Source of the DNA: Syntrophales bacterium
GTDB lineage: Bacteria > Desulfobacterota > Syntrophia > Syntrophales > UBA5619
DNA length: 28,131 nt
Direction: 5' to 3'
NCBI GenBank assembly: GCA_028712015.1
Contig: JAQTRB010000001.1
Span: 1 to 28,131 of the forward strand
Position 1 is the stretch's first letter. Each line of letters begins with the position of its first letter. The notes below the pieces were generated by a model. It made no database searches and was not told the origin of the DNA. It saw only the letters and a program-made list of their open reading frames with translations. The position numbers were made by a program, and so were the translations under genes. Below are positions 2,933-20,832 of the stretch, piece after piece.

Positions 2933-2999
2933 AACATTTCTCTCAAGACTGCCTGATATCGATCTCCGCCTGGCTCGGCCTCTCTCTCACCGCGGCCCT

Positions 3000-4262
3000 C
3001 TATCTCCTCTCCACAATGGCGCAGATCCCGAGTCCTCCGCCGCCACAGATGGTGACGAGCCCGTATCGGACGTCGCGCCGCATCATCTCATGGATCAGGG
3101 TGACGAGGCGTATGGACCCGGTGGCGCCGATGGGGTGGCCCAGGGAAATACCCGATCCGTTCACATTGACCTTTCGCTCCAGATCCGCGGTGCTGAGCGC
3201 CATCAATTTTGCATCGGCCAGCGTCTGGGCGGCAAAGGCCTCCTGGATCTCGATAAGATCGATCGAATCCATGGCCAATCCCGCCTTTTGAAGGGCCTTG
3301 TTCACGGCGGAGGAAACCGCCGGATAGGTCAAGGTCGGATCCGCCCCGGCCACGCCGAAGGATTTGAGATAAACCAGCGGTTTGACACCATGACGTTCAG
3401 CGATTTCCGGGGTTGTCATCACCAGTGCCGCCGCACCGTCGTTCTCACTGGAAGAATTCCCTGCCGTGCATATCCCGTCGGGATAAACGGCTTGAAGCTT
3501 GGCCAGTTTTTCCAGTGTCGTCTCCCGGCGAGGCGTTTCATCCCGGGCAAGGGTGAGCTCCTCCCCCTTTTTTTTAACCGTCACGGGAGTGATTTCATCT
3601 GCAAACTTGCCCGCGTCCATGGCCTGGATTGCCTTGCGGTGCGAGTCCAATGCCCATTGATCGGCCTCCTCGCGAGCTATCCCTTCTTTCCGCGCCGCCG
3701 CCTCCGCCCAGGTCATCATCGAATTGAGCTCGCCGAATCGGTCGATGGGCTGGTGCCGGGGACGACCGCGCTGGATCCTGTCGTAGAATGGAAGTCCCCA
3801 CAGGGAAAGGCTGCCGTGATGCCGGGGGGAAAAGCCCCACTTCGGATCGGCGCCCCCTCCCAATCCCCATTTGATGAGCTCACCGGGGATGTAGAACTCG
3901 CCGCGACTCATGCTTTCGGCGCCTCCGGCAACGACGATACCGGCATATCCGGTTTGGATTTCCATGGCCGCCGTCCATATCGACTGGAGCCCGGAACAGC
4001 AACGCCGATCGACCGTGAAGCCGGGAATCTCAACCGGCCAGCCTGCCTCCAGAAGCGCCAGCCGCGCCAGATTGGGAGTTTCGCCATTGGCAAAAGAGTG
4101 CCCGAGGATGACATCGTCAATCTCATCCGGTTCAATATGGGCCCTTCGCACCGCCTCTTGCAAGACGATGGCGGCCAGTTTTTCCACGGGGACATCCCGG
4201 AACATGCCGCAGTATGCCCCGATGGGTGTCCTGACCCCACTGACGATTGCGACCTCTTTCAC
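3000..4262 (-). CDS. Thiolase (acetyl-CoA C-acyltransferase family), atypical
   Basis: GTG start at 4262 after AAGGAGG; N-terminal EVAIVSGVRTPIG, nucleophile region DRRCCSG, GGAESMS, GNSSSENDGAAA, QEAF in place of NEAF, SLGHPIGATG, C-terminal TICGGGGLG. Confidence 0.92.
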   Translation of the reverse strand: MKEVAIVSGVRTPIGAYCGMFRDVPVEKLAAIVLQEAVRRAHIEPDEIDDVILGHSFANGETPNLARLALLEAGWPVEIPGFTVDRRCCSGLQSIWTAAMEIQTGYAGIVVAGGAESMSRGEFYIPGELIKWGLGGGADPKWGFSPRHHGSLSLWGLPFYDRIQRGRPRHQPIDRFGELNSMMTWAEAAARKEGIAREEADQWALDSHRKAIQAMDAGKFADEITPVTVKKKGEELTLARDETPRRETTLEKLAKLQAVYPDGICTAGNSSSENDGAAALVMTTPEIAERHGVKPLVYLKSFGVAGADPTLTYPAVSSAVNKALQKAGLAMDSIDLIEIQEAFAAQTLADAKLMALSTADLERKVNVNGSGISLGHPIGATGSIRLVTLIHEMMRRDVRYGLVTICGGGGLGICAIVERR

Positions 4263-4520
4263 TTTCCCCTCCTTGCTCGCCGTCAATTCCCGGATTGAAG
4301 CCATCACCGGCTCGTCTGCTCACGGATATTGCATTTGAATGGATCCTGCGGCCCGCGTGGCTTCCACACGTTCTTCGGGAAAGAGATCCTGCAGCAGGAT
4401 TACGTCGTCGGAAATACCCGGGCGGCCGATTTCCTTTTGCAGATCCTCGATGGTGGGCTGGGGTTGTTCCCAGTTCAGATATTTCTTGCCCTCAACCGTA
4501 TCGCTGGATGAAAGCTCACG
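4263..4520 (-). pseudogene. Start-less relic resembling the C-terminal part of a pyruvate/oxaloacetate carboxyltransferase (pyruvate carboxylase subunit B-like)
   Basis: Frame open from 4520: RELSSSDTVEGKKYLNWEQPQPTIEDLQKEIGRPGISDDVILLQDLFPEERVEATRAAGSIQMQYP, TGA at 4322-4320, then ADEPVMASIRELTASK in the thiolase frame. No start codon; TGA immediately upstream. Family assignment is from memory and unverified. Confidence 0.45.
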
Positions 4521-6024
4521 TCACTTGTTTGTCGTGCCTGATCTCGCGGAATTTTCTCAACAGGGGCAAAAAAAGGGCGATGATCGTCAGGGCCATGATG
4601 ATCCCGCTGATGGGCCGGCGGAAAAAGATGGTCCAGTCGTTCTGGAAACTGATCATCGTCGTCATGAAGGAACTCTCCGCCAGCGGTCCCAGGATCGTTC
4701 CCAGAACCATCGGTGCGATCGGAAATTTAATCTTTTCGAAGATATACCCCACGACGCCGAAGGCCACCATAAGCCAGAGATCGGAGATGCTGTTCCGGAT
4801 GGAGAAGGCGCCGATAAAGCAGAGGAGCATGATAAATGTTGAAACCACCGATTCGGGAAAATCGAGGATCTTCACGAGCGGTTTGATGGCGATGTATCCG
4901 ACGATGCTCATGAGGATGATCCCCAGGAACATCGAGGCGAAGACGGTGTAGACCATCCCGGTGGAGGTGATGAATATCTGCGGACCCGGTTGGATCCCGT
5001 GGAGGAGAAAGGCCCCGAGAATAACGGCCGTAGCGCCGCTCCCCGGAATGCCCAGGGTCAACAGGGGGATCAGGGCGCCGCCGACGGAGGCGGTGGCCGC
5101 CGCCTGGGGCGCGACGATCCCCTCGGGGATCCCACTGCCCATTTGTTCCTTTCGTTTTCCGTACTGAGCCTCCACGCCATAGGTGACAAAAGAGGCGATG
5201 GTGGCCCCGGCGCCGGGAACGATACCGATAATCGTACCGAGTATGGAGCTTCGGCAAAAGGTCGTTCCGATCCCCCAGGCCTCTTTGAGGGAGGGCATCC
5301 TGGTCTTCATGGCGCCCACGGTTTCCACGGGAACGGTTGTGAAGCCTTCGCCCAGTCGCGTCAAGACCTCGCCCACGCCGTAGGCGCCCACCATGACGGT
5401 GAGAAATTCAATACCGTCCATCAGGATGGGAGAACCGAAAGCGAAACGGGGCGTACCGTACGTCGCATCCACGCCCACGGTGGCAATGATAAGCCCGAAA
5501 AAGAGACTGATGAGGGCATTCGTCAGGGACCCGCCGCCGAGGGAAACGACGCTCGTCAGGCCGAAGAGGACGATGGCAAAATATTCGGGTGTGGAAAAGG
5601 TCAGGGCAAACTTGGCGACCGGTTCCGACAGGGTCACCATGATCACGCACGAAACGAGTCCGCCGATCAGTGCCGCGCAGATGGTCCAGCCCAGGGCCTT
5701 GGCTGCCTGACCCTGCTTCGCCATGGCATAGCCGTCCCAGAGGAGCGGGACATGGATGGGTTCGCCGGGAATCCGGAAGAGAATGGATGTGGGGGCGCCC
5801 CCGTAGGTGCCGGAAACATACATGGCCGTCAGCAGGACGATGGCGGGCGTCACGTCCATGGCATAGGTGAAGGGGAGGACCAGAATGACGCCCATGACGA
5901 GGGTCAGTCCCGGCAGGACGCCGACCAGAAGACCCACAACAATCCCCACGACAAGAAAAATCAGGTTGACCGGTTGGAAACAATTCAGGAAACCGACGCC
6001 GAGGTGGCTGAGAATATCCAACAT
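4516..6024 (-). CDS. tctA: Tripartite tricarboxylate transporter large permease TctA (copy 2)
   Basis: 502 aa hydrophobic; GVLPGLT, GTYGGAPTSILFRIPGE, GIVPGAGAT, LLTLGIPGSGATA, GIQPGP; RBS AAGGAG. Confidence 0.92.
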   Translation of the reverse strand: MLDILSHLGVGFLNCFQPVNLIFLVVGIVVGLLVGVLPGLTLVMGVILVLPFTYAMDVTPAIVLLTAMYVSGTYGGAPTSILFRIPGEPIHVPLLWDGYAMAKQGQAAKALGWTICAALIGGLVSCVIMVTLSEPVAKFALTFSTPEYFAIVLFGLTSVVSLGGGSLTNALISLFFGLIIATVGVDATYGTPRFAFGSPILMDGIEFLTVMVGAYGVGEVLTRLGEGFTTVPVETVGAMKTRMPSLKEAWGIGTTFCRSSILGTIIGIVPGAGATIASFVTYGVEAQYGKRKEQMGSGIPEGIVAPQAAATASVGGALIPLLTLGIPGSGATAVILGAFLLHGIQPGPQIFITSTGMVYTVFASMFLGIILMSIVGYIAIKPLVKILDFPESVVSTFIMLLCFIGAFSIRNSISDLWLMVAFGVVGYIFEKIKFPIAPMVLGTILGPLAESSFMTTMISFQNDWTIFFRRPISGIIMALTIIALFLPLLRKFREIRHDKQVT

Positions 6025-6038
6025 AGCAACTCCTTACG

Positions 6039-6569
6039 TTACCGGATGCCGAGCATTTTCAAGACCAGCAGGGAGAATTGCTGGAACATCCCCTGCCCGA
6101 GGGGGAGGGAAACATAGACCGCCTTCATAAAGATCACGACAAACAAAACCGTTCCGAGGACGCTGTTGGCCGCAATCACCCAGACCTTGCGGTAGCGGCC
6201 AACAATCATGAAGAGGAGAAGATAGAGAAACGTGCAGAGGATGAATCCCAGGATGCTCACGAAGTATACATAGGCAATGGTCATGAGGGTCCCGATGATG
6301 AGGAGACCGGTATATCGCTTTGGCGTTTCCGTCTTTTCCTTGCCGGCATCATTTTCCAATGCCTTGCCTCGATGAAACAGCATGATTTTGGCGATTTCAT
6401 ACAGACAGACCGCCATGGTCAGACCGAGGAGAAGCTTCGGCCAGAAGTCCGGGCCCAGATTCCCCGCTTTGGCGCCAAATCCGAACCGGCCGGCGAGAAC
6501 GTAGAAATATACGCTGATGAGAAGAACAACGGCGTAGGGAAAGATCCGTTTGATTTTTTCCATGGCCAT
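6039..6569 (-). CDS. tctB: Tripartite tricarboxylate transporter small membrane subunit TctB (copy 2)
   Basis: Start moved to ATG 6569 (GGAGGT upstream; 6563 also possible); 4 TM segments, LGPDFWP motif, C-terminal VSLPLG; between tctC and tctA. Confidence 0.85.
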   Translation of the reverse strand: MAMEKIKRIFPYAVVLLISVYFYVLAGRFGFGAKAGNLGPDFWPKLLLGLTMAVCLYEIAKIMLFHRGKALENDAGKEKTETPKRYTGLLIIGTLMTIAYVYFVSILGFILCTFLYLLLFMIVGRYRKVWVIAANSVLGTVLFVVIFMKAVYVSLPLGQGMFQQFSLLVLKMLGIR

Positions 6570-6649
6570 GATCCGCAATAACCTCCACAGGAATGTCTGC
6601 CTCCCGGTCCGAACCGGGAGACAGACCGAGCCGAAATGAAAAAAGGTCG

Positions 6650-7633
6650 TTACTTTTTCTTGGCGCCCCAGGTTTTTTTCATCGAATCCAGTTCGGAAAG
6701 GATGAACTTGGTGCACTCCTCATGGTTCATGAAGCTGTCCGCCGTCGCATACTGTTCCTCGAGGAAAGCCTTGAACTCCGGGGTCGCCGCCACCTTGCCG
6801 AAGGCATCCGAGAGGACCTTGATCTTCTTCGGGTCCGTCCCCGCCTTGGCAATAATGGCCCGGAACTGGGGCAGGCCGATATCATAGCCGAGTTCCTTGG
6901 AGCAGGGAACATCCTTGAAGGCCGGGAAGCGCTGGGAACCGAAGACGACGATGGGTTTGATCTGCTTGCCCGTAATGTACTGCCGTACGTCACCGGCCTG
7001 CTCGTAAAGGGCGTCCACATGGGTGCCGAGAACCGATACATACCGCTCACTGGGTTTGGAGTAGGGAACCTGGATGACCTTGACCCCTTTGCTTTCCAAG
7101 AAAGTCAGGGTGATGTCATCGACGCTGCCGAAGCCCAGGGTCGCCACCTTGAGAGTGCCCGGCTTTGCCTTGGCCTCCTTCTCGAAATCCGCCCAGGATT
7201 TGAAACGGCTGTTTTCCGCCACGAACAGGAAGGACGGGCCCAGCATCAGCCGTGCCACCGGCATGATGTCGGTCATCTTCCAACTGGCCGGTGAGGTCGC
7301 CAGCACGGCATGGGAATCGGCAATGTAGACGGCAATGGACTGGCCGTCCGCCGGCGCAGCCAGGAGTTTCGTAATGCCCGTGCCGCCGGTGGCGCCGGGA
7401 ACATCGATCACGGGAAATGGAACATTCAGCACCTTTTCCAGCAGGACGCCGCTTTTGCGGGCAAGCTGGTCCGCCCCGCCGCCGGGACCCCAAGGGACGA
7501 TGTACTCAATCGCCCGGGAAGGGTATTTCTCCTGAGCCGCCGCTTCCTTCAGGGCCGGACCTGCCAGCATCGCCGCTGAAAAGGTCAACGCCATGACCAT
7601 TACCAGGTATTTCCGCATGCGCTTTTTCATCAT
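6650..7633 (-). CDS. tctC: TctC/Bug-family periplasmic substrate-binding protein
   Basis: Signal peptide, YPSRAIEYIVPWGPGGGAD, PGATGGTG, APADG, DVPCSKELG, AKAGTD; start ATG 7633 after GGAGGAGG. Confidence 0.9.
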   Translation of the reverse strand: MMKKRMRKYLVMVMALTFSAAMLAGPALKEAAAQEKYPSRAIEYIVPWGPGGGADQLARKSGVLLEKVLNVPFPVIDVPGATGGTGITKLLAAPADGQSIAVYIADSHAVLATSPASWKMTDIMPVARLMLGPSFLFVAENSRFKSWADFEKEAKAKPGTLKVATLGFGSVDDITLTFLESKGVKVIQVPYSKPSERYVSVLGTHVDALYEQAGDVRQYITGKQIKPIVVFGSQRFPAFKDVPCSKELGYDIGLPQFRAIIAKAGTDPKKIKVLSDAFGKVAATPEFKAFLEEQYATADSFMNHEECTKFILSELDSMKKTWGAKKK

Positions 7634-7752
7634 TTCCTCCTCCATTTGATTTTCTACCCCTTCAACCAGGGCATCGATTTACGGAAACGAATCCGCCGTT
7701 TTTTCAAAGGGGCCCTTGACCGCCGGGATGTGACGACCGGCCTTCCAGCCGA

Positions 7753-9480
7753 TCAATCGGCAAAATATACGGGCGAAACGTTGGCTCTCAAAGCCGCCAG
7801 CTCCACTTCCGTCGGAGGCGGCGTCATCCCGACATCCGCCGGAACAATCAAATCGAATCCCGTCGCCGCCACAACCTGATCGACGGTCACTCCCGGATGA
7901 ACCGAGACCAGTTTCATCCGTTTGCTCAGAGGATCGAAGCCGAGGACCGCCATATCGGTAATGACCTTGTCCGGTCCGCCGCCGGTCAATCCGGCGTCGG
8001 CGCGCGATGTTCCGCCATTGAGATATCCAGGGCTGGTGATATAATCCACCCGCTCCAGAAAACGCCGCTTTTCATGTTTCATGATAATCATGGTCCGCTT
8101 TGCGCAGGAGGCGATGACATTGGCGCCGCCGCTGCCCGGAAAACGTTTTTTGGGTTTGTGGTAGTTTCCGATGCAGGTGGCATTCAGATTGCCGTATTGA
8201 TCGATCTGGGCCCCCCCCAGGAATCCGACATCGGCGAAACCCCGGTGGACGATGTGGCCCAGACCGTCCAGCGTCGCCGTAACAAAGGCGGGCTTCGCGA
8301 TACCGGTCAAACGCGGATCGGCAACCGACAGCGATGAATCGACCGGCTTCAAACCACCGATTCCCGTCTCAACAACATAGTGGCAATGGGGCGCATGGGA
8401 CAGCTTGGCCACGGTCGTTGCCGCCATGGGCAAACCCGTTCCCGCCACGACGATATCATGGTCTTTCAACTCGCGGGCGGCGGCGATGATCATGAGCTCC
8501 CGAAGGTTGAATTCTCCGGGCGGCTTCTCCTGCAGCTCGATCGCGGGACTGACGAGGCTGGTTGTGTATTTCGAATAACCAAGCCGGGGATCGATGGCCA
8601 GCCGGCGGTACGTCAGCGGCGTTCCGGCGATTTCGAGATAGGCGGTAAAATCCTCGACGCCGTAAACGAACCGGTCCAGATAGGCCTTGAAACTCTCCGG
8701 TGTGCTGGAAATCTTCTGGTAATTCCGGAGCGCCTCATAGTCATAGTCATAGCAACCGGGAACGCAGGACGGATAAGCGCCCCGCGGGCAGTGGACGATG
8801 GCGTTCACCCGGAAGAACGGAATGATGGTGGACTCGGGATTGCGCCGGATCTCATCGTTGGGAATCAATTGTTCCGTGACCAGGATCACCTGGCGGGCGG
8901 CCTTGGCGATATACTCGTCCGCAAAACTGGATCCGTCGATCTGGCAGTTGCCGCTTTCGTCGCAACGGGGCACGTGGATGACGGCGAGGTCGGGAGTGCA
9001 GGCGGGCAGGAGAACCACTTTCTGGTTTGTGAAGGGGCAATTCATCATTTCAAACTTTTTTGCCTTCAGGACCTGGTACTTGAGCATATCGGAACCCAGC
9101 ATGGATGTCATCGGGATGAAGGGAAAACCGAGGGAACCGGCCAGGTAGCGAAATGTCATCGCCCCGTGCTCATAGTCTTCGGAGAGGATTCGCCCCTCCT
9201 GAACGCTGCGGCAGAAGTTTTTCGGCAATCCGAGACGCTCCATGTTCACGCAGCCGGATTCGATGGACTTGACCAGCCCGGCGCCGATCAGGATATCCAC
9301 GGAATAGGAGGGATTCACGCTGGAAATATGCAGATCGCCGATTCCCTGACGGATCACTTCATGGGAAAAGGCCATCGGACTGCGACACAGGGAAAATCCA
9401 CCATAACCGAGATGCATCCCGGGATGGACAAAGCGAGAAACGGCTTCCTTCATGGTCATCAATTTGCACTCTTCACTCAA
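7753..9480 (-). CDS. Family I CoA-transferase, glutaconate/3-oxoadipate CoA-transferase type, alpha and beta subunits fused
   Basis: TTG start at 9480 after GAGGAGG; alpha part MTMKEAVSRFVHPG, PDLAVIHVPRCDESGNCQIDG, HCPRGAYPS; beta part ELMIIAAAREL, GTGLP, catalytic-type VETG, GGAQIDQYGNLN, GSGGAN, ERVDYITSPG, LVSVHPGV; no internal stop. Confidence 0.88.
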   Translation of the reverse strand: MSEECKLMTMKEAVSRFVHPGMHLGYGGFSLCRSPMAFSHEVIRQGIGDLHISSVNPSYSVDILIGAGLVKSIESGCVNMERLGLPKNFCRSVQEGRILSEDYEHGAMTFRYLAGSLGFPFIPMTSMLGSDMLKYQVLKAKKFEMMNCPFTNQKVVLLPACTPDLAVIHVPRCDESGNCQIDGSSFADEYIAKAARQVILVTEQLIPNDEIRRNPESTIIPFFRVNAIVHCPRGAYPSCVPGCYDYDYEALRNYQKISSTPESFKAYLDRFVYGVEDFTAYLEIAGTPLTYRRLAIDPRLGYSKYTTSLVSPAIELQEKPPGEFNLRELMIIAAARELKDHDIVVAGTGLPMAATTVAKLSHAPHCHYVVETGIGGLKPVDSSLSVADPRLTGIAKPAFVTATLDGLGHIVHRGFADVGFLGGAQIDQYGNLNATCIGNYHKPKKRFPGSGGANVIASCAKRTMIIMKHEKRRFLERVDYITSPGYLNGGTSRADAGLTGGGPDKVITDMAVLGFDPLSKRMKLVSVHPGVTVDQVVAATGFDLIVPADVGMTPPPTEVELAALRANVSPVYFAD

Positions 9481-9545
9481 AACGAAAACCTCCTCTTCAA
9501 TTTTCCGGGCAGTAGGATGTTGCCCCTTGGCGGGAGAGCGGGGGG

Positions 9546-9574
9546 AGCGTAGCGAAACCAATTTTCATTGTCAA
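9546..9574 (-). promoter_or_regulatory. Sigma70-type promoter for the CoA-transferase-tctCBA-thiolase unit
   Basis: TTGACA (9574-9569), 17-nt spacer, TACGCT (9551-9546), about 65 bp upstream of the TTG start. Confidence 0.65.
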
Positions 9575-9718
9575 GAAAACATTGACGCCTTCGGAAAAAA
9601 CAATCCCGTCAACCCTGTACCTTTGAACACCATACCATCGCAGAACCGGACGCAACGTGCGGTTAAGGATTCGCGCTGCAGCGGCCTGCCCTCGGAAGGA
9701 TCGCTGGAATACGACATC

Positions 9719-11107
9719 TTAAACGCTCACTTTGTCGATGGCGCTCCGGATGGCTGAAACGATCCGGTCGATGTCACCCTTCGTGGCCACCAGCGCCGGG
9801 GCGAGATTAATGGTGTTGTTCAGACCGGGAAGGCTCCGATTGGTCCGGCCCACGAGGACGCCCTGATCGGCGATTCCCTTTACGATGTTCATCAGGAAGG
9901 GTTCCGACACCGGCTGTTTCGTTTTGCGGTCCTCGACAAACTCAATGCCGGCAAAGAGCCCCCTGCCCCGCACATCGCCTACGATCGGAAAGGCCCGGAG
10001 CTCCTCCAGACGGCCAAGCAGGTACTCCCCGACGATCCGGCTGTTTTCGCAGAGATGTTCCTCTTCGATGATCCGGGCGTTCTCCAGCGCCGCGGCGCAG
10101 GCGCCGGCGCAGCCGCCGTAGGTGCTGATGTCCCTGAAATAGGCCATCTTGTCGGCAGGATCATTGACAAACGCATTGAAAACGTCTTCCGTGACGACCG
10201 TGGCGGACAGCGGCATATAGGCGCTGGCCATTCCCTTCGCCAGGGTCACCATGTCGGGCTGAACGTCATAGTGCTGATAGCCGAACATCTTCCCCGTCCG
10301 GCCGAAACCGCAGACCACCTCGTCCAGGATCATCAGGACTTCATATTTCCGGCAGATTTTCTGCAGAAGCGGGTAATACTCCTTCACCGGCGGAATAATG
10401 CCTCCGCCGGCCGTAATCGTCTCAAGGATGACCCCCCCCACCGTGTCCGGGCCCTCCTTCAGGATCGCGGTCTCCAGGGCCATCGCGCAGTCGATGTCGC
10501 ATCCCGGATAGGTCCTTCCGAACGCGCACCGGTAGCAGCAGGCGTGCGGAAACTCCGCAAAACCCTCGAGGAACGGGCCGTAGCCTTCCTTCCGCTCCTG
10601 CTGTCCGCCGGCGCTCAGCGCCGCCATCGTGGTCCCGTGGTAATCCCGGTTGCGGTACAGGATCTTGTACTTGTCCTTCCCCTTGTATTTCAGACGGAAG
10701 TACTGCCGGACCATCTTGAAGGCCTTTTCGTTCGCCTCCGAACCGCTGTTGGAAAAGAAAATCTTGCCCAGGCCGGGCATCAGCGCTATGACCTTGCCGG
10801 CAAACCGGATCGTCGGGATGTTTCCCGCCGTGCCCGCATAGTAGGGCATCGTCTTCAACTGCTCGCGGACGGCGTCGGCGATGGAATCCCGTCCGTAGCC
10901 GACATTCACGCACCAGACCCCGCCCGATGTGGCGTCCAGATACTCCCGGCCCCGGATGTCCTTCAGGATCAGGCCCCGGCCTTCCACCATGACCTGAGGC
11001 TCGCTCGTCTGGAATACCTTGTGCTGCATCAGATGATGCCAGAGGTAATCCCGGTCCTGTTTCAACAATTCGTCGACGTCTTTCCGCATCAAATCCCTTT
11101 CGTTCAT
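9719..11107 (-). CDS. tpa: Class III PLP aminotransferase, taurine:pyruvate aminotransferase (Tpa)-like
   Basis: ATG 11107 after AAGGAGG; WHHLMQH, YLDATSGGVWCVNVGYGR, SNSGSEANEKA, YRNRDYHGTT, DEVVCGFGRTG, PLP lysine in TLAKG, and FVNDPADKMAYFRDISTYGGC closely recalling Bilophila Tpa (from memory). Family certain, substrate probable. Confidence 0.8.
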   Translation of the reverse strand: MNERDLMRKDVDELLKQDRDYLWHHLMQHKVFQTSEPQVMVEGRGLILKDIRGREYLDATSGGVWCVNVGYGRDSIADAVREQLKTMPYYAGTAGNIPTIRFAGKVIALMPGLGKIFFSNSGSEANEKAFKMVRQYFRLKYKGKDKYKILYRNRDYHGTTMAALSAGGQQERKEGYGPFLEGFAEFPHACCYRCAFGRTYPGCDIDCAMALETAILKEGPDTVGGVILETITAGGGIIPPVKEYYPLLQKICRKYEVLMILDEVVCGFGRTGKMFGYQHYDVQPDMVTLAKGMASAYMPLSATVVTEDVFNAFVNDPADKMAYFRDISTYGGCAGACAAALENARIIEEEHLCENSRIVGEYLLGRLEELRAFPIVGDVRGRGLFAGIEFVEDRKTKQPVSEPFLMNIVKGIADQGVLVGRTNRSLPGLNNTINLAPALVATKGDIDRIVSAIRSAIDKVSV

Positions 11108-11284
11108 GACTCCAAACCTCCTTGTTTCCAGCGACGGCGCCGGGCGCCGTTCTCCCAAATGACCTGCGGGGAAAGGCCTTTTTCCAGGCCGTTCAAATAT
11201 GCCCTGATGTCAAACCCCATCCCGGGACGCGTTGCTCGGCAAAGGTGGGGGAACCCCCTCGGGCGGGTGTTGATCCGCGGCCTG

Positions 11285-12064
11285 TTACAGCGTCAGCTCC
11301 GAGGCCTCGGTGATTTCGTGACGGAGCTTGAGAAACGCCATGTCCGTATGCTCCCGCGGCCGGGGCAGATCGACATTGTAGACAACGTCCATCCGGCCCG
11401 GCAGTTTGCCCACCATGGTGACGATGCGGTCCGCGAGATAGATCGCCTCATCGATATTGTTGGTCACAAAGAGGATCGTCCGCTTCTCGGTTTCCCAGAT
11501 GCGGGCGGTCTCCTTCTCCATGAAATAGCGGGTCTGGGCGTCGAGCTGGCCGAAGGGTTCATCCAGAAGCATGACCTGGGGATTGTTGGCATAAGCCCGG
11601 GCGATCCCCACCCGCTGCTTCATTCCGCCGCTGAGCTGGTGGGGATAGTGGTTCTCGAAGCCGTCCAATCCGACCAGATGGATGTAATGGGCGGCAATTT
11701 CGCGCCGCTCGTTCTTCGGTACGCCGCGCAGTTTGGGACCCATCTCCACGTTTCCCATGACCGTTTTCCAGGCGAAGAGCATGTAGCCCTGGAACACCAG
11801 ACCCCGGTCCGGTCCCGGACCTTCCACCTCCCGGCCGTCCAAGAGCACGCGCCCTTCCGTCGGCGTTTCCAGGCCGGCGATGATGCGCAGCAGCGTGCTC
11901 TTGCCCGACTGGCCCGGCCCCAGGATCACGACAAACTCGTTCTCCTTCACGTCCAGGCTGATGTGGTCCAGCACATGAACCCGCTGCTTCCCCTTCTGGA
12001 TGAAGATCTTGGTGATGTCTTCACACACGATCTTGGTCTGACCGGGATGCGTTTCGTCTTTCAA
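11285..12064 (-). CDS. TauB/SsuB-family ABC transporter ATP-binding protein (degenerate Walker A and H-switch)
   Basis: GPGQSGKST, VFQ Q-loop, LSGGMKQR, LLDEPFGQLD, FVTNNIDEA, DLPRPR. Start placed at TTG 12064 (AGGAG upstream); ATG 12124 is an alternative. Confidence 0.9.
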   Translation of the reverse strand: MKDETHPGQTKIVCEDITKIFIQKGKQRVHVLDHISLDVKENEFVVILGPGQSGKSTLLRIIAGLETPTEGRVLLDGREVEGPGPDRGLVFQGYMLFAWKTVMGNVEMGPKLRGVPKNERREIAAHYIHLVGLDGFENHYPHQLSGGMKQRVGIARAYANNPQVMLLDEPFGQLDAQTRYFMEKETARIWETEKRTILFVTNNIDEAIYLADRIVTMVGKLPGRMDVVYNVDLPRPREHTDMAFLKLRHEITEASELTL

Positions 12065-12127
12065 TCTGATCTCCTGCGACAAAGAATTGAATGTTCCGAG
12101 GCTCCGGTCCGGGCCGGCGCCCATCTC

Positions 12128-12961
12128 CTACGGGCTGTCGATCTCCCGCTTCCAGGGGCAGACGAACCGCTCCAGAACCGAGACGAGTTGGCTCATTCCC
12201 CAGGAAACGAGCGCAATGACAACCATGCCTCCCACGATCATGGCCGGTCGTGAGAGGTTCATACCCAGGATGATGATGAACCCCAGACCGGAGCGGGCGC
12301 TGACCAGTTCGGCGGCAAGAACGCAGCTCCAGGCGATGCTCAATGCGATCTGCAGCCCCGCGAAAATGGCGGGGAAAGCCGCGGGAAAGCATACCTGGAC
12401 GATCTCGTCGCGGCGGTTTCCGCCCAACATGCGGACCACGTCGTACAGCTCGGGCTCCACCAGCCGAACGCCGTTATAGGCGTCCAGCAGACAGGGCACG
12501 AATGTGCCGATGATGATGATGAATACCTTCGAGGTCTCGCCGATGCCGAACCAGAGGATCGCGATGGAGATCCAGGCCAGCGGCGGCATCGGTTTGAGAA
12601 GGTCGAAGAGCGGCTTCACAATGGCGTTGACATAACGGTTGAGCGCCATCATCAGTCCCAGCGGCACCGCCACCAGCGTGGCGATGGTGAAGCCGATGAG
12701 GATCCGCTGGGTACTGGCCCAGACATGACCCAGGAGCGACTTCCCCGCGAGCGGATCGAAGAGCATGCGCCAAAGCTGGAGGACCACTTCATGGGGCCGG
12801 GGCAGACCACTGGCGAACATGCGGGCCGAGCTGTCCCAGACGACGAAAAAGAACATCAGCGAAACGCCGTAGAGGAACCAGCGGTTCTTGAGCATCGCGG
12901 CCGGGGTCAGAGGTTTTCGTTCCCGAACCTGCTGCTGTATTTCGTTGGCAATATCGACCAC
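12128..12961 (-). CDS. TauC/SsuC-family ABC permease
   Basis: LKPMPPLAWISIAILWFGIGE, AAELVSARSGLG, about 6 TM segments; GTG start after GGAGG. Confidence 0.9.
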   Translation of the reverse strand: MVDIANEIQQQVRERKPLTPAAMLKNRWFLYGVSLMFFFVVWDSSARMFASGLPRPHEVVLQLWRMLFDPLAGKSLLGHVWASTQRILIGFTIATLVAVPLGLMMALNRYVNAIVKPLFDLLKPMPPLAWISIAILWFGIGETSKVFIIIIGTFVPCLLDAYNGVRLVEPELYDVVRMLGGNRRDEIVQVCFPAAFPAIFAGLQIALSIAWSCVLAAELVSARSGLGFIIILGMNLSRPAMIVGGMVVIALVSWGMSQLVSVLERFVCPWKREIDSP

Positions 12962-12967
12962 GTGACG

Positions 12968-13762
12968 CTACCTCCTAATCCCGGCCAGCAGCTTCTTCTC
13001 AAAATAGTTGATGATGATCCCGATCACGACGCCGGTGAGACCGATCATGATCATTCCCAGCAGGACCATGTCGGGCAGGGCGAGTTTCCTCCCCATCGTG
13101 ATGAGAAAACCGAGCCCCCGGTCCGCGGCCAGCAGTTCGGCCGCGACCAGGTTGGTCCAGCAAAGGGCAAGGGCAATCTGCAGTGCCCCGAAGACCATGG
13201 GCAGGGCCGAGGGAATGCAGATCTGCTTGAAGATCTGCCAGTCCGTGGCGCCGTATGTCCTGGCCATCTGGACCAGCGTGGGGTTCGTCATGCGGACCCC
13301 TTCATACGAATTGATCACGCAGGGTACGATGCCTCCAATCCAGATGATGAAGATCTTGCCGCTGATGCCGATGCCGAACCAGAAGATGACCAGGGGGATC
13401 CAGGCAACGGGAGGAATGGGGCGGATCATTTCGAAAATCGGACGGCCCAGGCCTTCGACGACGACAAACCAGCCCATGGCCAAACCCAGCGGTATCCCCA
13501 CAAGCAGGGCAAGCAGATAGCCGGCGAAAGCCTCCTGGACGCTGGTCCAAATATGCTGCGAAAGCAGGGCGCCGTCAGGATTCACCTCCGTCCACTTCAC
13601 CAAAAAAAGCTGAAAAATCTGGATCGGCGAGGCGAGCATCGTCGACGGGACGATCTCCCGATCCACAACCATCTGCCACGCGCCGAAGAAGGCAAGGACG
13701 CTCAGGACGGGAAGCAGCCTCAGGATCAGGGGCGTCTTGACTTTGACTTGCTCATAGGCCAT
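12968..13762 (-). CDS. TauC/SsuC-family ABC permease (second paralog)
   Basis: IRPIPPVAWIPLVIFWFGIG, EAA-like QMARTYGA, AAELLAADRGLG; GGAGGTG RBS. Confidence 0.9.
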   Translation of the reverse strand: MAYEQVKVKTPLILRLLPVLSVLAFFGAWQMVVDREIVPSTMLASPIQIFQLFLVKWTEVNPDGALLSQHIWTSVQEAFAGYLLALLVGIPLGLAMGWFVVVEGLGRPIFEMIRPIPPVAWIPLVIFWFGIGISGKIFIIWIGGIVPCVINSYEGVRMTNPTLVQMARTYGATDWQIFKQICIPSALPMVFGALQIALALCWTNLVAAELLAADRGLGFLITMGRKLALPDMVLLGMIMIGLTGVVIGIIINYFEKKLLAGIRR

Positions 13763-13916
13763 GGATCACCTCCGAATGTTCTCCCGGCGCGGGAGAAAAA
13801 CAGTTTAAAATCGATCTGACGTGGAAAAGGGATCTTCATGCTTTGCATCGTTTTCCACGAGACGGATACAGGAAAATCATCATGTCTCAGACGGCCGCAC
13901 ACCTTATGAGCGCAGG

Positions 13917-13965
13917 GCCCATTTCGGGAACCGGCCTTTTCCCCGGGCCGGTCCCCGAAATGGGC
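13917..13965. other. Strong inverted repeat (20-bp stem with 1 mismatch, 9-nt loop) just downstream of the binding-protein gene
   Basis: GCCCATTTCGGGAACCGGCC (13917-13936) pairs with GGCCGGTCCCCGAAATGGGC (13946-13965); no poly-U tail on the minus strand, so more like an mRNA-stabilising hairpin than a classic terminator. Confidence 0.75.
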
Positions 13966-14011
13966 AGCATCCTCGTCCCGTCGCAACGGATCAGAACCCG
14001 CCATCCGCGCC

Positions 14012-15088
14012 CTAGGGAATGGGCTGTTTGACCATTTTGAGGAATTTGTCCGTGATGTAGGGGGTCTTGAGCGCCTTGTCCCTTTCCTCCGGCTTGAACC
14101 GCCCCAGTGTCGTGAACACCTCGGTGATGGTTCGCTGCCAAGACTCGACCGTGCTGTCCCCCTTTGCCGGTTTCTTGAACAGCTTCAACTGTTCCTCATA
14201 CGTGAAAACCGGATGCCACTCGAAATCGTTCTTCAGCATGTCGTCTTTCAGGTCCATACCGGCCCATTCCTTGTAGAAGCGCTTGTATTCGGGCAACAGC
14301 TTGATACCTTCCTTTTTGATCAGGTTGATTCCCCGCATGTACATCCTCAAAAACTTGGCGACAATTTCCGGGTTTTTGTCGCAGAATTTCTTGTCGCCCA
14401 TCAGGATGATGGGCAGGGCAGCGCCGGCGGTTTTCACGTCGCCGGCCACCTTCCATCCCTTCCCCATGCCCGTGAACATATGGGGCGCCCAGAGGACGAC
14501 GATGTCGCCGACGCCCGAATCAAAGGCCGCCACGGCCTGGGCCTGGTCCATGTTCTTGACCACCACGTCGCCGTCCTTGAGCCCGAATGCCTTGAGCCAG
14601 AGGCTCATGGCGTAATGGCCCGATGAAACCGTCGTGACCAGGATCGTCTTGCCTTTGATCAAATCGGGATTGCCGTAGAGTTCGGGGTGTTTCTTGTTCC
14701 AGCCCTTAACCTTCAGGATCGGGCTGTCGGGCCGAACCATGACGACATTCGTGATGGACTCGTCATTGCCGAGGGCGATCAGATAGGCTCCGTGACGGAG
14801 GGCGCCCACCACCATCGGCACGCCGCCCTGCCCGCCCAGGACCCACTGTCCGGCAGGCAGCGCTTCCCATTGCGCCATGCCGGAGTCGAAGTAGTGCATC
14901 TTGATGTCCAGCCCCTCTTCCTTGTCCCAACCCTTCTGCTTGGCATACCAGACCACGAAGGTCTCATGCTCCGGCTGCCAGCTGGTGTTGAGTTCGAAGA
15001 GTTTCTGCTGCGCGAAAGCCGCGCTGGCCCCGCCGACGAAAAACGCCAACGCCAACAATACAATGCCTGCAACTTTGAGCTTCCTCAT
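14012..15088 (-). CDS. TauA/SsuA (NitT/TauT family) ABC substrate-binding protein
   Basis: ATG 15088 after AAAGGAG; signal peptide ending SAAFA; KGWDKEEGLD, FDSG, LIKGKTILVTTVSSGHY, AFDSGVGDIVVLWAP. Confidence 0.87.
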   Translation of the reverse strand: MRKLKVAGIVLLALAFFVGGASAAFAQQKLFELNTSWQPEHETFVVWYAKQKGWDKEEGLDIKMHYFDSGMAQWEALPAGQWVLGGQGGVPMVVGALRHGAYLIALGNDESITNVVMVRPDSPILKVKGWNKKHPELYGNPDLIKGKTILVTTVSSGHYAMSLWLKAFGLKDGDVVVKNMDQAQAVAAFDSGVGDIVVLWAPHMFTGMGKGWKVAGDVKTAGAALPIILMGDKKFCDKNPEIVAKFLRMYMRGINLIKKEGIKLLPEYKRFYKEWAGMDLKDDMLKNDFEWHPVFTYEEQLKLFKKPAKGDSTVESWQRTITEVFTTLGRFKPEERDKALKTPYITDKFLKMVKQPIP

Positions 15089-15208
15089 ACCGTCCACTCC
15101 TTTCTGTTTTTGATGGTCTCCTCCCGGACAGGCCCCTGCCTGTACCCCCGAAACGCGTTGTCCCGATGCAGACAGAGCCGGGACGTCTCTGTTCATTGAG
15201 ACCCGCCG

Positions 15209-15976
15209 CTACCACCAGCGGATCAGTTCCGTCACCTCCTTGCGGATCTCCACAAGGCGGGGATCGATAAGACTCCGGGGACGGGGCAGATCGACCTTGA
15301 CTTCGGCCTTGACCTTGGCGGGCTTGTTGCTCAGAATGAGGATGCGCTCCGACACGTAGACCGCCTCTTCGATATTGTGGGTCACAAAGATCACCGTGCT
15401 CTTGAGCTGCTCCCACAGGCGCACCAGTTCATCCTCCAGATAGTAGCGAAGCTTCACGTCCAACTGGCCATAGGGCTCATCCATCAAGAGCAGATCCGGA
15501 TTGACGGCAAAGGCCCGGGCCACGGCGATCCTCTGCAGCATGCTGGCCGAGATCTGGTTGGGATAAAGATCGGCGCAGTCGGCCAAGCCCACCAGGCTCA
15601 TGATCTGATTCAGCTTCTTCTCCATTTCCGCCTTCGGAACCCGCTTGACCTCCATCCCGTAGGCCACGTTCTCGCGCACGGTGCGCCAGGGCAGGCAGGT
15701 CGGTTCCTGGAAAACGAAGGAGAGATGATGTTTCTTGGGATCGGCAACTTCGCCATCGATGAAGATGTCTCCCGCCGTGGATGGAATCAGTTTGGAGAGT
15801 GTATTGAGAAATGTGGTCTTGCCGCAGCCCGTGGGCCCGACAATGCTTAGAAATTCGCCTTCTCCCACATCGAAGGATATCTGATCAAGGACCAGCAGAT
15901 CCCCGAATCGCTTCGTCAGATTTCTGACCTCGATTTTTGCCTTTCTTGTTTTACCACCGTCCACACTTCCCCCCAC
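15209..15976 (-). CDS. TauB/SsuB-family ABC transporter ATP-binding protein (degenerate signature motif)
   Basis: GPTGCGKTT, VFQ, signature ISASMLQR instead of LSGGQ/M, LLMDEPYGQLD, FVTHNIEEA, DLPRPR. Start GTG 15976 or 15964. Confidence 0.9.
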   Translation of the reverse strand: MGGSVDGGKTRKAKIEVRNLTKRFGDLLVLDQISFDVGEGEFLSIVGPTGCGKTTFLNTLSKLIPSTAGDIFIDGEVADPKKHHLSFVFQEPTCLPWRTVRENVAYGMEVKRVPKAEMEKKLNQIMSLVGLADCADLYPNQISASMLQRIAVARAFAVNPDLLLMDEPYGQLDVKLRYYLEDELVRLWEQLKSTVIFVTHNIEEAVYVSERILILSNKPAKVKAEVKVDLPRPRSLIDPRLVEIRKEVTELIRWW

Positions 15977-16031
15977 TTCACAAATATACCGCGGACGAAA
16001 TTCTCAGGGGAATTTGGCCGAAAACCGCGGG

Positions 16032-17438
16032 CTAGCGACCATATTTCGCCCAGAGCGGGCCCCAGATTTCATCTTCGGTCGGCTTCACCACCGGCAGCGG
16101 TTCGGAGACCCATGTCACATTGATAAAATGCTTCCAGTGGATATTTTCGCTCGTGATGTTGCCGCCCCAGGTGCCGCATCCCAGCGTGACCGTGGAGGGC
16201 ATGCCGTTGTGGAAATGGCCCCCGGCGGACGGCGCATGGGCCTGACGGACCAGAATGCGGCTGACTTTGGCGGCAGTCGCCACCTTCCGGATATAGTCGG
16301 AATTGAAGGAATAGATGCCGCAGGAGTGTCCCAGCCCCGCATAGTTGTGGAGTGTCGCGATGAGCTCTATGGCATCGTCGATCGTCTGGTAACGCCACAG
16401 GGCCATGACGGGGGATAGTTTCTCGCCGCTGAATCGCTCCTCGCCGGGTTTTTCCCCGATGACCATGAGCATTTTGGTGCCCTCGGGAACGGCGAGCCCG
16501 GCGTCTTCGGCGATGCGACGGGCCGATACGGCGATAATCTTGGAATTGAGGGCAACATGACCTGTTTTTGAGCTCGCGACCCACATCCAGCTCTCCAGTT
16601 TTTGCTTTTCTTCCTCATTGCAGAGGTATCCGCCCTGTTTTTTGAGCTCCGCCACCATCCGGTCGAAAACGCCCTCCTGGATCAGCAACGAATTATCGGA
16701 ACTGCACGAGGTTGCATTGTCGAACGTTTTACTGATCCGGATCTTCTGGGCCGCATCCGCCAAGTCGGCATCTTCGGCGATAATGATGACCGGGTTGCCG
16801 GCGCCGACGCCATAGGCGGGCTTTCCGCTGGAATAGGCGGCCTTGACCATCACGGCGCCGCCGGTCGCCACCACCAGGTCCACCTGCCGCATCAACTCCT
16901 GGCTCATCGGTACGCTGGGCTCCTCGATATATTGAATCAAATCCACCGGGGCGCCGACCTTGCGCAGTCCCTCCCGCATGAATTCGCAAACCACCCGGCA
17001 GGACCGCTTCGCCGCCGGATGGGGGGCAAAAATGACGGCGTTACGTCCTTTCAGGATCCCCGTGCCGTTGCTGGCCGCCGTTGCGGTGGGATTCGTCACG
17101 GGCGTCAGCGCCCCGATGATCCCTACCGGCTTCGCGTATTTCGTCAGCCCACGGGCTTCGTCCCGTTCGATCACCCCCACCGTTTTCGCCTGCTTGATAT
17201 CGCGGCAGACCCCAAGGACCTTGACCTTGTGTTTGGTGAGTTTGTCCTCATAGACGCCCATGCCGGTCTCTTCCACGGCGATTTTCGCGCAGGCGGCAAT
17301 GTTGTCGTCCTTGTATACCTGCCATGCCACCGAGAGGGCCACCTCGTCGATCTGCTCCTGCGTATAATTTTCCACCAGTTTCTGTGCGGCACGTGCCTTG
17401 GCCACCAAAGTGCCGACGATCTCTTCGTTGCTCGACAT
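16032..17438 (-). CDS. sauS: CoA-acylating aldehyde dehydrogenase, sulfoacetaldehyde dehydrogenase (SauS)-like
   Basis: ATG 17438 after AAAGGAGG; KPVGIIGALTPVTNP, ATGG, GVGAGN, SKTFDNATSCSS (catalytic Cys; matches SauS as remembered rather than AdhE-type DNGxICASEQ), EKLSP, GCGTWGGN; no C-terminal alcohol dehydrogenase domain. Confidence 0.75.
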   Translation of the reverse strand: MSSNEEIVGTLVAKARAAQKLVENYTQEQIDEVALSVAWQVYKDDNIAACAKIAVEETGMGVYEDKLTKHKVKVLGVCRDIKQAKTVGVIERDEARGLTKYAKPVGIIGALTPVTNPTATAASNGTGILKGRNAVIFAPHPAAKRSCRVVCEFMREGLRKVGAPVDLIQYIEEPSVPMSQELMRQVDLVVATGGAVMVKAAYSSGKPAYGVGAGNPVIIIAEDADLADAAQKIRISKTFDNATSCSSDNSLLIQEGVFDRMVAELKKQGGYLCNEEEKQKLESWMWVASSKTGHVALNSKIIAVSARRIAEDAGLAVPEGTKMLMVIGEKPGEERFSGEKLSPVMALWRYQTIDDAIELIATLHNYAGLGHSCGIYSFNSDYIRKVATAAKVSRILVRQAHAPSAGGHFHNGMPSTVTLGCGTWGGNITSENIHWKHFINVTWVSEPLPVVKPTEDEIWGPLWAKYGR

Positions 17439-17484
17439 GTCTCCTCCTTTTTTTGAAACGCCCGTCCGGCGACCAGCGGCTAAA

Positions 17485-17513
17485 TCCGTATACAAAAATA
17501 TCATGGTTGTCAA
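17485..17513 (-). promoter_or_regulatory. Candidate promoter of the sauS-ABC-tpa unit overlapped by a GTATAC operator
   Basis: TTGACA at 17513-17508; imperfect -10 (TACGGA) at 17-nt spacing; CCGTATACAAAA at 17486-17497 overlaps the -10 region. Confidence 0.5.
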
Positions 17514-17585
17514 TAAATTTCCCGATCAGCCAGTAGACTTTCTTAATAGGCTGAATCCGGCGTCTTCCGCTTTGCCTTTTTGAGT

Positions 17586-17614
17586 TTGACTTCCGGCGAA
17601 ATTTCCGCTAAAAG
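17586..17614 (+). promoter_or_regulatory. Possible sigma70 promoter for the LysM-NlpC/P60 gene
   Basis: TTGACT (17586-17591), 17-nt spacer, TAAAAG (17609-17614); -10 imperfect. Confidence 0.3.
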
Positions 17615-19878: not shown

Positions 19879-20805
19879 TCATTCCAGAAGATCGCGAAGC
19901 ATCGGCAGCATCAGGTCCATCGCCCGTTTCCCCTCTTCGATGGATTCCTCGGCCCGATTGAACTCCATCAGGCCGATATGGGCGAGTTTAGGCTTGACGA
20001 GGATGTCCGGGGGATCGGAGGCAAGGCGCTCACGGGTGATCCGGTCCTGCATGATCTTGACGGAGGTCGCCACGACATCGAACACCGATGGAACGCGCTC
20101 CGGCTGTTCCTGAAAGAGGTGCCGGAAAAGAGTGAGATTCCCCTGCTGCACCGTCTGATTCAGAAAAGCGGTCCATTTGCTTATCGTCTTGGGATTGTCG
20201 CCGTTCCGGACGCCGATCGGCGGATCGACCATCCGACTGATCCGGGATTTCCCCATGATGTCGGAATTGAGATTGACGGCAATGACGAGGTCGGCGCCCA
20301 TCGATCGACACAGCGACACGGGAACGGGATTGACAAGACCACCGTCCACAAGCCACTGGCCGTTCCGCTGACAGGGGGTAAAGATTCCGGGGAGAGAGAT
20401 GCTTGCCCGAATGGCATCCATCAGCGATCCGTCTCGCAGCCAAATCTCCCTTCCGGTCTTCAGGTCGGTGGCGACGGCCGCGAAGGGGAGCGCGAGCTCT
20501 TCGATTTCCGGGTCGGCCATGTTCTGTCGGAAATAGGCCGTCATCCGCTCGCCTTCGATCAACCCCGACCTCGGGATCATGACGTCCATGAAGCCGATGA
20601 TGTAGGACCAGCTCAGCCGTCGCGCCCAGCGGTCCAGAGGGTCGAGAAAGCCGGCGGCAAAGGAACCCGCAACGAGTGCGCCGATTGATGTCCCGCAGAC
20701 GATATCAATCTTGACGCCCGCCTCCAGCAGGCTTCGGATTACGCCAATATGGGACCATCCCCGGGCCGATCCGCTTCCCAGGGCAATGCCGATTTTTTTG
20801 GCCAT
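19879..20805 (-). CDS. Patatin-like phospholipase (RssA/NTE family)
   Basis: IALGSGSARGWSHIG, nucleophile elbow GTSIG, AIRASISLPGIF, catalytic DGG, VNPVP. Confidence 0.92.
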   Translation of the reverse strand: MAKKIGIALGSGSARGWSHIGVIRSLLEAGVKIDIVCGTSIGALVAGSFAAGFLDPLDRWARRLSWSYIIGFMDVMIPRSGLIEGERMTAYFRQNMADPEIEELALPFAAVATDLKTGREIWLRDGSLMDAIRASISLPGIFTPCQRNGQWLVDGGLVNPVPVSLCRSMGADLVIAVNLNSDIMGKSRISRMVDPPIGVRNGDNPKTISKWTAFLNQTVQQGNLTLFRHLFQEQPERVPSVFDVVATSVKIMQDRITRERLASDPPDILVKPKLAHIGLMEFNRAEESIEEGKRAMDLMLPMLRDLLE

Positions 20806-20832
20806 GACGGTAAAACCCTTTGATGAACCAAC

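Follow-up and report, generated by a model that had tools for sequence, protein, structure and literature searches.

A fused family-I CoA-transferase among taurine and acylating aldehyde dehydrogenase genes: a candidate ligase-free entry to sulfoacetyl-CoA in an uncultured Syntrophales bacterium

A minus-strand gene cluster on contig JAQTRB010000001.1 of Syntrophales bacterium GCA_028712015.1 encodes a fused family-I CoA-transferase (CoAT), which we propose to be an acetyl-CoA:sulfoacetate CoA-transferase, together with an acylating aldehyde dehydrogenase (ALDH) of the SqwD/SauS type, a predicted taurine ABC importer, a predicted taurine–pyruvate aminotransferase (Tpa) and a tripartite tricarboxylate transporter (TTT). 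The window analysed here (28,131 bp) is one entire contig of a 2.05-Mb metagenome-assembled genome (MAG; 350 contigs, 79% complete). The prediction that CoAT acts on sulfoacetyl-CoA and substitutes for the ligases SauT, SauCD or SqwKL is well founded in its gene neighbourhoods. The best explanation of the whole, to which we give roughly even chances, is that a sulfite-reducing, Syntrophaceae-like uncultured anaerobe would import sulfoacetate and activate it by CoA transfer, converging with taurine on sulfoacetaldehyde. Taurine and sulfoacetate are abundant sulfonates that anaerobes can convert to sulfide; sulfoacetate originates from sulfolipid breakdown and detergents, and taurine is abundant in manure and wastewater. 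To our knowledge, the described sulfoacetyl-CoA routes all spend or make ATP through a ligase (SauT, SauCD or SqwKL), and our literature search found no paper on a CoA-transferase acting on sulfoacetate or sulfoacetyl-CoA. If the proposal is right, CoA transfer would add a third mechanism for forming or consuming sulfoacetyl-CoA, with no ATP spent, which would matter for energy-limited anaerobes, and annotation pipelines could be missing sulfoacetate users whose genes are labelled generically as “CoA-transferase” or “aldehyde dehydrogenase”.

The CoAT gene (positions 7753–9480; 575 aa) encodes the alpha and beta parts of a glutaconate CoA-transferase-type enzyme in a single chain. The protein matched PF01144 in two stretches (216.8 bits), corresponding to the alpha and beta CoA_trans halves, and its residues 9–306 and 328–571 matched GctA (172 bits) and GctB (191 bits), respectively (PDB 1poi). 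The cut-offs of the 3-oxoacid CoA-transferase subfamilies (PcaIJ/AtoDA/SCOT) were missed (pcaJ_scoB: 48 vs. 243.6 bits; pcaI_scoA: 22 vs. 128.5 bits). Glu371, in the motif VVETGIGG, aligned with the Glu of IIVESG in GctB, which we take to be the catalytic Glu54 that forms the enzyme–CoA thioester. Fold and catalytic Glu are intact and GctAB-like. The clade to which this CoAT belongs is tight (at least 57% identity; ca. 100 clusters at 90%, none of them named; next relatives at ca. 41%) and rare, with no member found in 400 other genomes of the phylum (0/400). A more distant clade (ca. 40% identity), with one member (L036) in a leucine/HMG-CoA-like context, was set aside as uninformative.

The CoAT loci with readable flanks fell into three arrangements; two further contigs (L096 and L097) stop directly after CoAT. 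In arrangement A, CoAT accompanies a four-subunit 2-oxoacid oxidoreductase (OFOR; a GltD-like subunit plus alpha, beta and gamma), with GntR and TctCBA genes in L032–L034 and a major facilitator superfamily (MFS) transporter in L011 and L031. The start of the OFOR follows CoAT in L013, and in genome G405, with CoAT (L014) and the OFOR (L082) both at contig ends, their adjacency is no more than likely. Arrangement B comprises GntR-ALDH-CoAT-TctCBA in L001, the ALDH of which is 85% identical to that of the window, and CoAT-ALDH-TctCBA followed by an iron-containing alcohol dehydrogenase (Fe-ADH) in L012, from a Veillonellaceae MAG (genome G403). Arrangement C combines the ALDH, the taurine ABC genes, Tpa and CoAT, with TctCBA in the window and in its relative L010; L037 has an MFS transporter and an Fe-ADH instead of TctCBA and a different gene order. 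CoAT was found with SauS-type ALDHs in four independent arrangements, and three lineages of such ALDHs adjoin its clade: the SqwD-type lineage of the window and L001; that of L012, 49% identical to the window ALDH and scoring 558 bits on the SauS model; and that of L037, only 41% identical, yet above the SauS cut-off (696 vs. 600 bits). Because the ALDH partner has been replaced non-orthologously beside the same CoAT clade, the shared intermediate is probably sulfoacetyl-CoA, and this is the strongest evidence for that intermediate. An earlier, sequence-only reading of this DNA had suggested that a CoA-transferase stands here in place of the ligase, a suggestion supported by this recurrence; the co-occurrence search that it proposed recovered CoAT with tpa and sauS-type genes in L010, L037, L001 and L012.

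The same loci bear on the possibility that two unrelated units lie side by side in the window, a taurine unit (ALDH-ABC-Tpa) and a PcaIJF/AtoDAB-like unit (CoAT-TTT-thiolase) that would activate and cleave an imported 3-oxoacid. A thiolase gene (3000–4307; PF00108 and PF02803) does follow the TTT genes, and a 238-bp spacer between Tpa and CoAT (9481–9718, read from the sequence) holds a promoter-like site (TTGACA-17-TACGCT) and an inverted repeat, TTGACG(N19)CGTCAA. The promoter-like site was not among the hits of a consensus promoter scan, and neither the sigma-70 scan nor the terminator scan rose above shuffled expectation. In L010, however, the spacer measures only ca. 50 bp and has no homology to the 238 bp of the window, which is lineage-specific here, and the thiolase is absent between TctA and GntR, as it is from all other CoAT loci, placing it outside the conserved unit. 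Independent metagenomes of this strain do contain the thiolase; the whole stretch from 3000 to 4515, consisting of the thiolase and 208 bp of non-coding DNA between TctA and GntR, is absent in L010 and looks like a lineage-specific insertion. Since the thiolase is missing from the closest relative and every other CoAT locus, and given that CoAT lies far below the 3-oxoacid CoA-transferase models (48 vs. 243 bits) and travels with SauS-type ALDHs, we regard a PcaIJF-like unit as highly improbable.

The ALDH (16032–17438; 468 aa; PF00171) had SauS (NF047625) as its best NCBIfam model, with 541 bits against a cut-off of 600, and SucD of C. kluyveri as its nearest solved structure (364 bits). Its catalytic residues Cys245 and His371, along with Lys73 and Ser246, aligned with C242, H364, K70 and S243 of that enzyme, in which K70 and S243 correspond to the Lys and Ser holding the distal carboxylate. 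The conservation of this pair suggests that the acyl group accepted by the window ALDH bears a distal anion; the four conserved residues do not distinguish sulfonate from carboxylate substrates. A homologue with 69% identity (L005; SauS model, 525 bits) shares its cluster with an RpiB-type isomerase, an ADP-forming ligase pair and a split transketolase, and judged by these genes the cluster is the published sulfo-transketolase (sulfo-TK) variant with SqwD and SqwKL. Homologues with 52%–54% identity in three Desulfobacterota genomes occur with SqwKL/SauCD-like ligases and a TTT, a Na/sulfate-symporter-family transporter or Xsc, arrangements known from Bilophila, and SauCD-linked homologues scored 471–485 bits. 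Because L005 and the SauCD-linked proteins also fall below it, the 600-bit cut-off appears to exclude known subtypes. In a maximum-likelihood tree of context-defined ALDHs, the window ALDH grouped with those of L001, L003 and L005 (support 98/97), and this clade was sister to the SauCD-linked SauS clade (100/99). The dehydrogenase, previously described simply as sauS-like, is placed by the tree with a sulfo-TK-context homologue and next to SauCD-linked SauS, and on context and phylogeny we file it as SqwD/SauS type.

On the taurine side, the class-III aminotransferase (9719–11107; 462 aa; PF00202) scored 496 bits on NCBIfam PRK07678 (cut-off 488), and homologues with 61%–85% identity carry the JGI label taurine-pyruvate aminotransferase, which is an automatic label only. 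In L050, Desulforamulus ruminis by its NCBI name, an orthologue with 67% identity lies between alanine dehydrogenase (Ald) and a thiamine diphosphate enzyme that passes both Xsc models (841 bits vs. a cut-off of 676). The importer genes there (ATPase-binding protein-permease-permease-ATPase) have the same order as in the window, with 50%–74% identity. The window counterparts are ATPase 1 (15209–15976; PF00005; 74% identical to the first ATPase of L050), a periplasmic binding protein of the NMT1/SsuA family (14012–15196; PF09084; the true start may be internal), permease 1 (12968–13762; PF00528; 74%), permease 2 (12128–12961; PF00528; 61%) and ATPase 2 (11285–12124; PF00005; 70%). Further Tpa orthologues adjoin Xsc in L047 (58% identity) and are flanked by two Fe-ADH genes in Desulfitispora alkaliphila (L051; 62%). 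The binding protein, 51% identical to its counterpart in L050 and 54% to that in L037, remained below the cut-offs of taurine_ABC_bnd (49.7 vs. 304 bits) and SsuA_fam (82.6 vs. 163.5 bits). Because it lies so far below the TauA cut-off, the ligand of the importer was assigned from the orthology of the gene set. Given that Ald and a genuine Xsc accompany the orthologues in L050, we conclude that the five ABC genes and the aminotransferase probably encode a taurine importer and Tpa, in line with the tpa-like gene and TauT-type importer named in the sequence-only reading. A biogas-fermenter run labelled as RNA-Seq (X20) contained contigs 90%–95% alike over positions 9756–15859 and 2100–3035 (Tpa, ABC and GntR genes) and none over ALDH, CoAT, TTT or thiolase. 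These contigs are probably DNA of a relative that has the taurine genes without the sulfoacetate module, and the run was dropped as evidence of transcription.

The likeness of the ALDH to SucD brings in a route for non-sulfonated omega-amino acids (beta-alanine/malonate, gamma-aminobutyrate/succinate or 5-aminovalerate/glutarate), in which the ALDH would be SucD-like and CoAT specific for a dicarboxylate. Such a route would account for the nearest ALDH structure (364 bits) with its retained carboxylate-binding Lys and Ser, for the glutaconate CoA-transferase as nearest relative of CoAT, for an ALDH score under the SauS cut-off in a library (NCBIfam) without a competing SucD model, and for the weak match of the binding protein to TauA. 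However, every context-defined relative in the ALDH clade has a sulfonate link (sulfo-TK/SqwKL, SauCD and Xsc), the ABC and aminotransferase orthologues occur with Ald and a bona fide Xsc, the L037 orthologue of CoAT stands beside an above-cut-off SauS, and CoAT co-occurs with DsrAB, Xsc and sulfonate lyases. A non-sulfonated substrate is improbable in our view; succinyl-, glutaryl- and malonyl-CoA as the hub were down-weighted once the Tpa/ABC orthologues had proved to be linked to Xsc and the SauS at L037 to exceed its cut-off.

The direction in which the sulfoacetyl-CoA step would run can be judged from the importer next to it. The TTT genes of the window encode a TctC-family binding protein, proposed to bind sulfoacetate (6650–7645; PF03401), the small membrane subunit TctB (6039–6716; PF07331; start probably internal) and the large membrane subunit TctA (4516–6024; PF01970, 450 bits). 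TctC and TctA co-vary with CoAT: identities to the counterparts at other CoAT loci were 95% (L010), 61% (L012) and 49%–52% (L032–L034) for TctC and 95%, 65% and 47%–49%, respectively, for TctA. A carboxylate importer, either a TTT or an MFS transporter, stands beside CoAT at every locus with readable flanks, and the MFS transporters of L037 and L031, 78% identical to each other, belong to the anion:cation symporter type. TTT systems need a binding protein and operate in the uptake direction. Because a carboxylate importer is the constant partner of CoAT, the import direction is favoured. The sequence-only reading had set the direction from taurine to sulfoacetate, with the thioester kept, and this is not favoured, the TTT importer being the most conserved partner of CoAT. 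The gene set of L012 (CoAT-ALDH-TctCBA-Fe-ADH) mirrors the reductive route of Bilophila, which likewise favours sulfoacetate uptake and activation, and its genome, G403, has genes for DsrAB as well as for a glycyl-radical lyase of the HpsG/IseG type (HpsG model, 1542 bits). Five reference genomes, Acidobacteriota and Veillonellaceae MAGs among them, have close CoAT orthologues; DsrA was above the cut-off in all five, Xsc was present in two and a sulfonate-type glycyl-radical lyase in two others. This distribution, with a desulfonating enzyme in four of five, also favours activation of sulfoacetate towards sulfoacetaldehyde.

From the gene identities, orthology and conserved linkage, we infer the substrates, the CoA donor and the direction as follows. 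Taurine would be imported by the five-gene ABC system, and Tpa would transfer its amino group to pyruvate, giving sulfoacetaldehyde, with pyruvate regenerated by an Ald encoded elsewhere in the genome (above the cut-off on host contig C158). Sulfoacetate would be brought in by the TTT system and converted by the fused CoAT to sulfoacetyl-CoA, paid for by acetyl-CoA or another acyl-CoA without ATP. The SqwD/SauS-type ALDH would then reduce sulfoacetyl-CoA to sulfoacetaldehyde, the desulfonation of which, either by Xsc or by way of isethionate and a glycyl-radical lyase, would be encoded outside the window.

The CoAT-ALDH pair could also run the other way, as both steps lie near equilibrium. Taurine would then be oxidised through sulfoacetaldehyde to sulfoacetyl-CoA, from which CoA would pass to acetate or another acid, retaining the thioester energy (acetyl-CoA to ATP), and sulfoacetate would be excreted; the substrate of the TTT system would be a different one, such as the CoA acceptor. 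The window and L037 cluster taurine genes with ALDH and CoAT and have no lyase in the cluster, and elsewhere the enzyme beside Tpa consumes sulfoacetaldehyde (Xsc in L050, Fe-ADH in L051). TauE-family exporters are encoded in the host genome and would suit such excretion. Several further observations agree with oxidation or otherwise weigh against sulfoacetate import and reduction. The taurine part of the operon begins with the ALDH gene, and the nearest context-defined relative of this ALDH, of the SqwD type, works oxidatively in the sulfo-TK pathway. Searches of the host genome (79% complete) for Xsc, glycyl-radical enzymes and SuyB-like genes were negative, as were those of its closest relative, G401, for Xsc and close HpsG/IseG homologues; both are incomplete MAGs. 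The window TctC is only ca. 27% identical to TctC of SauS-SauCD clusters (L078 and L080), and its binding of sulfoacetate is read from context. The ALDH score is below the SauS cut-off, and the tree covered context-defined ALDHs, with characterised SauS, SqwD and SucD outside it and the Tpa and SauZ references likewise unplaced. On the other side, the TTT importer co-varies with CoAT even in clusters without Tpa, sulfoacetate reduction would suit L012, with its Fe-ADH and a genome that encodes DsrAB and a lyase at other loci, and all CoAT-bearing reference genomes belong to DsrAB organisms, which gain from the release of sulfite and not from the excretion of sulfoacetate. The lyase absence, moreover, is read from incomplete MAGs. 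We therefore consider the oxidative direction possible but somewhat unlikely and retain the sulfoacetate-import reading.

The nearest reference locus, L010, belongs to Syntrophaceae bacterium UBA6112 (genome G401) and has the order perm-perm-ATPase-Tpa-CoAT-TctCBA-GntR as in the window, but without the thiolase. A search for DsrA in the 79% complete host genome did not find it. G401 carries dsrAB (G401:C82:3504-5848), and the genes flanking it have orthologues at the start of host contig C261 and at the end of C56; these flanks are syntenic with G401, and both contigs terminate at the expected position of dsrAB. Because C261 and C56 end exactly there, the missing dsrAB is most likely a gap in the assembly between the two contigs. 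The single glycyl-radical enzyme of G401 is of undefined type, with only 33% identity to an HpsG-type enzyme.

Other sulfonate- and phosphonate-related genes were observed in these genomes. Split SuyAB-like pairs, each with a small SAF subunit and a large subunit of ca. 390 aa from the altronate/galactarate-dehydratase family, occur in L091 (G402:C9:219725-223108) and L089 (G401:C32); in the Acidobacteriota genome, the pair lies ca. 2 kb from dsrAB. In G403, L049 (G403:C5:146000-165999) combines an HpsG/IseG-type lyase and its activase with an acetaldehyde-dehydrogenase-like gene and a split transketolase, the parts of which share 45% and 38% identity with that of sulfo-TK; the locus resembles a fusion of a sulfo-TK cluster with a C–S lyase. 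The host genome itself encodes a second SauS-like acylating ALDH on G000:C148 (L067:961-7871; 486 bits; 44% identity to the window ALDH). It adjoins two genes that pass the cut-off of PbfA, the (R)-1-hydroxy-2-aminoethylphosphonate ammonia-lyase (643 and 617 vs. 525 bits), which hints at an acylating phosphonoacetaldehyde dehydrogenase.

The ALDH, the five ABC genes, the aminotransferase and CoAT are co-oriented on the minus strand and contiguous with short gaps, just as the sequence-only reading had described its sauS-like gene, TauT-family importer, tpa-like gene and CoA-transferase. The interval that it gave, 7753–17438, ends correctly at the ALDH start codon and the CoAT stop, but was too narrow: beyond 7753, the same strand runs on through TctC, TctB, TctA, the thiolase and a GntR/FCD regulator (2171–2893; PF00392 and PF07729). 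An NlpC/P60-LysM gene upstream of the ALDH lies on the opposite strand, and this strand change defines the unit as extending from the ALDH to GntR. The GntR/FCD gene is likely the regulator of the cluster; it flanks the CoAT loci L001, L010 and L032–L034 as well as the CoAT-less ALDH-Tpa locus L003. In metagenomes from landfill, groundwater and manure, near-identical contigs together cover positions 2100–17600 and bridge most of the junctions between genes (TctA-thiolase, CoAT-TctC and the Tpa-CoAT spacer among them), so that the gene order is not an assembly artefact. The gene set is repeated in L010 with 78%–96% protein identity and again, in shuffled order, in the unrelated contig L037 (CoAT 70%, Tpa 65%, ABC parts 54%–71%), indicating that the grouping is more than chance. 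Given that near-identical loci were found in bioreactor, landfill, groundwater, wastewater and manure metagenomes, the organism appears to be widespread in engineered anaerobic systems.

Inside the ABC operon, a 249-bp spacer (13763–14011, minus strand, read from the sequence) follows the binding-protein gene and contains a long inverted repeat, a near-perfect hairpin (CCCATTTCGGG...CCCGAAATGGG) 3' of that gene. Outside the sulfonate unit, positions 104–2099 encode a second pair, TctB2/TctA2, which forms a separate TTT locus in the relative (G401:C78), and positions 19879–25137 hold the gene of an activase-type protein of 1434 aa (BcrAD/BadFG-DUF2229) and, after it, a patatin gene.

The OFOR of arrangement A extends the question of the hub beyond the window. 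The stretches concerned are L032:5670-14858, L033:5661-14899, L034:5680-14911, L031:10001-18809, L003:5670-12849 and L013:7993-10678, and in L003, a locus without CoAT, the OFOR lies beside a SauS-type ALDH and Tpa. The best models of the OFOR are of the 2-oxoglutarate type, far below cut-off. The CoAT clade might mark an unrecognised sulfoacetyl-CoA hub of sulfite-reducing anaerobes, in which the OFOR would interconvert sulfoacetyl-CoA plus CO2 and 3-sulfopyruvate, a tentative idea that is unlikely as it stands; alternatively, the OFOR may only supply the CoA donor. If the former were true, the C2 sulfonates taurine and sulfoacetate would be joined to desulfonation of C3 sulfolactate by SuyAB through a new C–C bond-forming or bond-breaking step. 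As a hypothesis, a new organosulfonate reaction of this kind can be tested directly on the OFOR-linked sister clusters.

Known systems resemble parts of the cluster. The taurine part corresponds to the importer-Ald-Tpa-Xsc cluster of Desulforamulus ruminis (L050), with five ABC genes in the same order (50%–74%) and Tpa at 67%; unlike L050, the window cluster has no Ald or Xsc and carries ALDH, CoAT and TTT genes instead. GctAB of Acidaminococcus fermentans (PDB 1poi) shares the family-I fold with CoAT, both subunits matching over nearly their full length, and the Glu of the beta subunit is conserved. In contrast to GctAB, the CoAT subunits are fused (575 aa), the context is organosulfonate metabolism and not glutamate fermentation, and the substrate is predicted. 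In the sulfo-TK variant with SqwD and SqwKL, as described by Chu et al. (2023), cited in PMC12890257, sulfoacetaldehyde is oxidised and ATP is made by the ADP-forming ligase. The ALDH of such a transketolase/SqwKL cluster falls in one clade with the window ALDH (69% identity), whereas the window has a CoA-transferase and no sulfoquinovose genes.

The closest functional parallels are the sulfoacetate pathways. The SauSTU system of Cupriavidus necator, as outlined in PMC10413351, leads from sulfoacetate through sulfoacetyl-CoA to sulfoacetaldehyde, the same sequence that is proposed for the window from its genes alone. Cupriavidus has an AMP-forming SauT, the MFS transporter SauU, an aerobic host and Xsc; the window has a CoA-transferase and a TTT, and Xsc was not found in the host genome. 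The sulfoacetate cluster of Bilophila wadsworthia, SauXYZ-SauCD-SauS-TauF-IseGH, is reductive (Liu et al. 2023, PMC10413351), and the survey of sulfoacetate clusters in the same paper lists SauT and SauCD as the only activating enzymes. Bilophila activates sulfoacetate with the ADP-forming SauCD, in contrast to the fused family-I CoA-transferase predicted for the window. The window TctC (ca. 27% identity) is not a SauZ-type orthologue, and orthology of the TTT to SauXYZ is accordingly not claimed; there is no TauF/IseGH in the window, and taurine genes are interleaved. Common to the two systems would be import by a TTT, acylating sulfoacetaldehyde dehydrogenases of one family, sulfoacetyl-CoA as the intermediate and an anaerobic, sulfite-reducing host, and the L012 relative also has an Fe-ADH. 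Taken together, the window system would combine a taurine branch of the Tpa type with a module that works like SauXYZ-SauCD-SauS of Bilophila and SauSTU of Cupriavidus.

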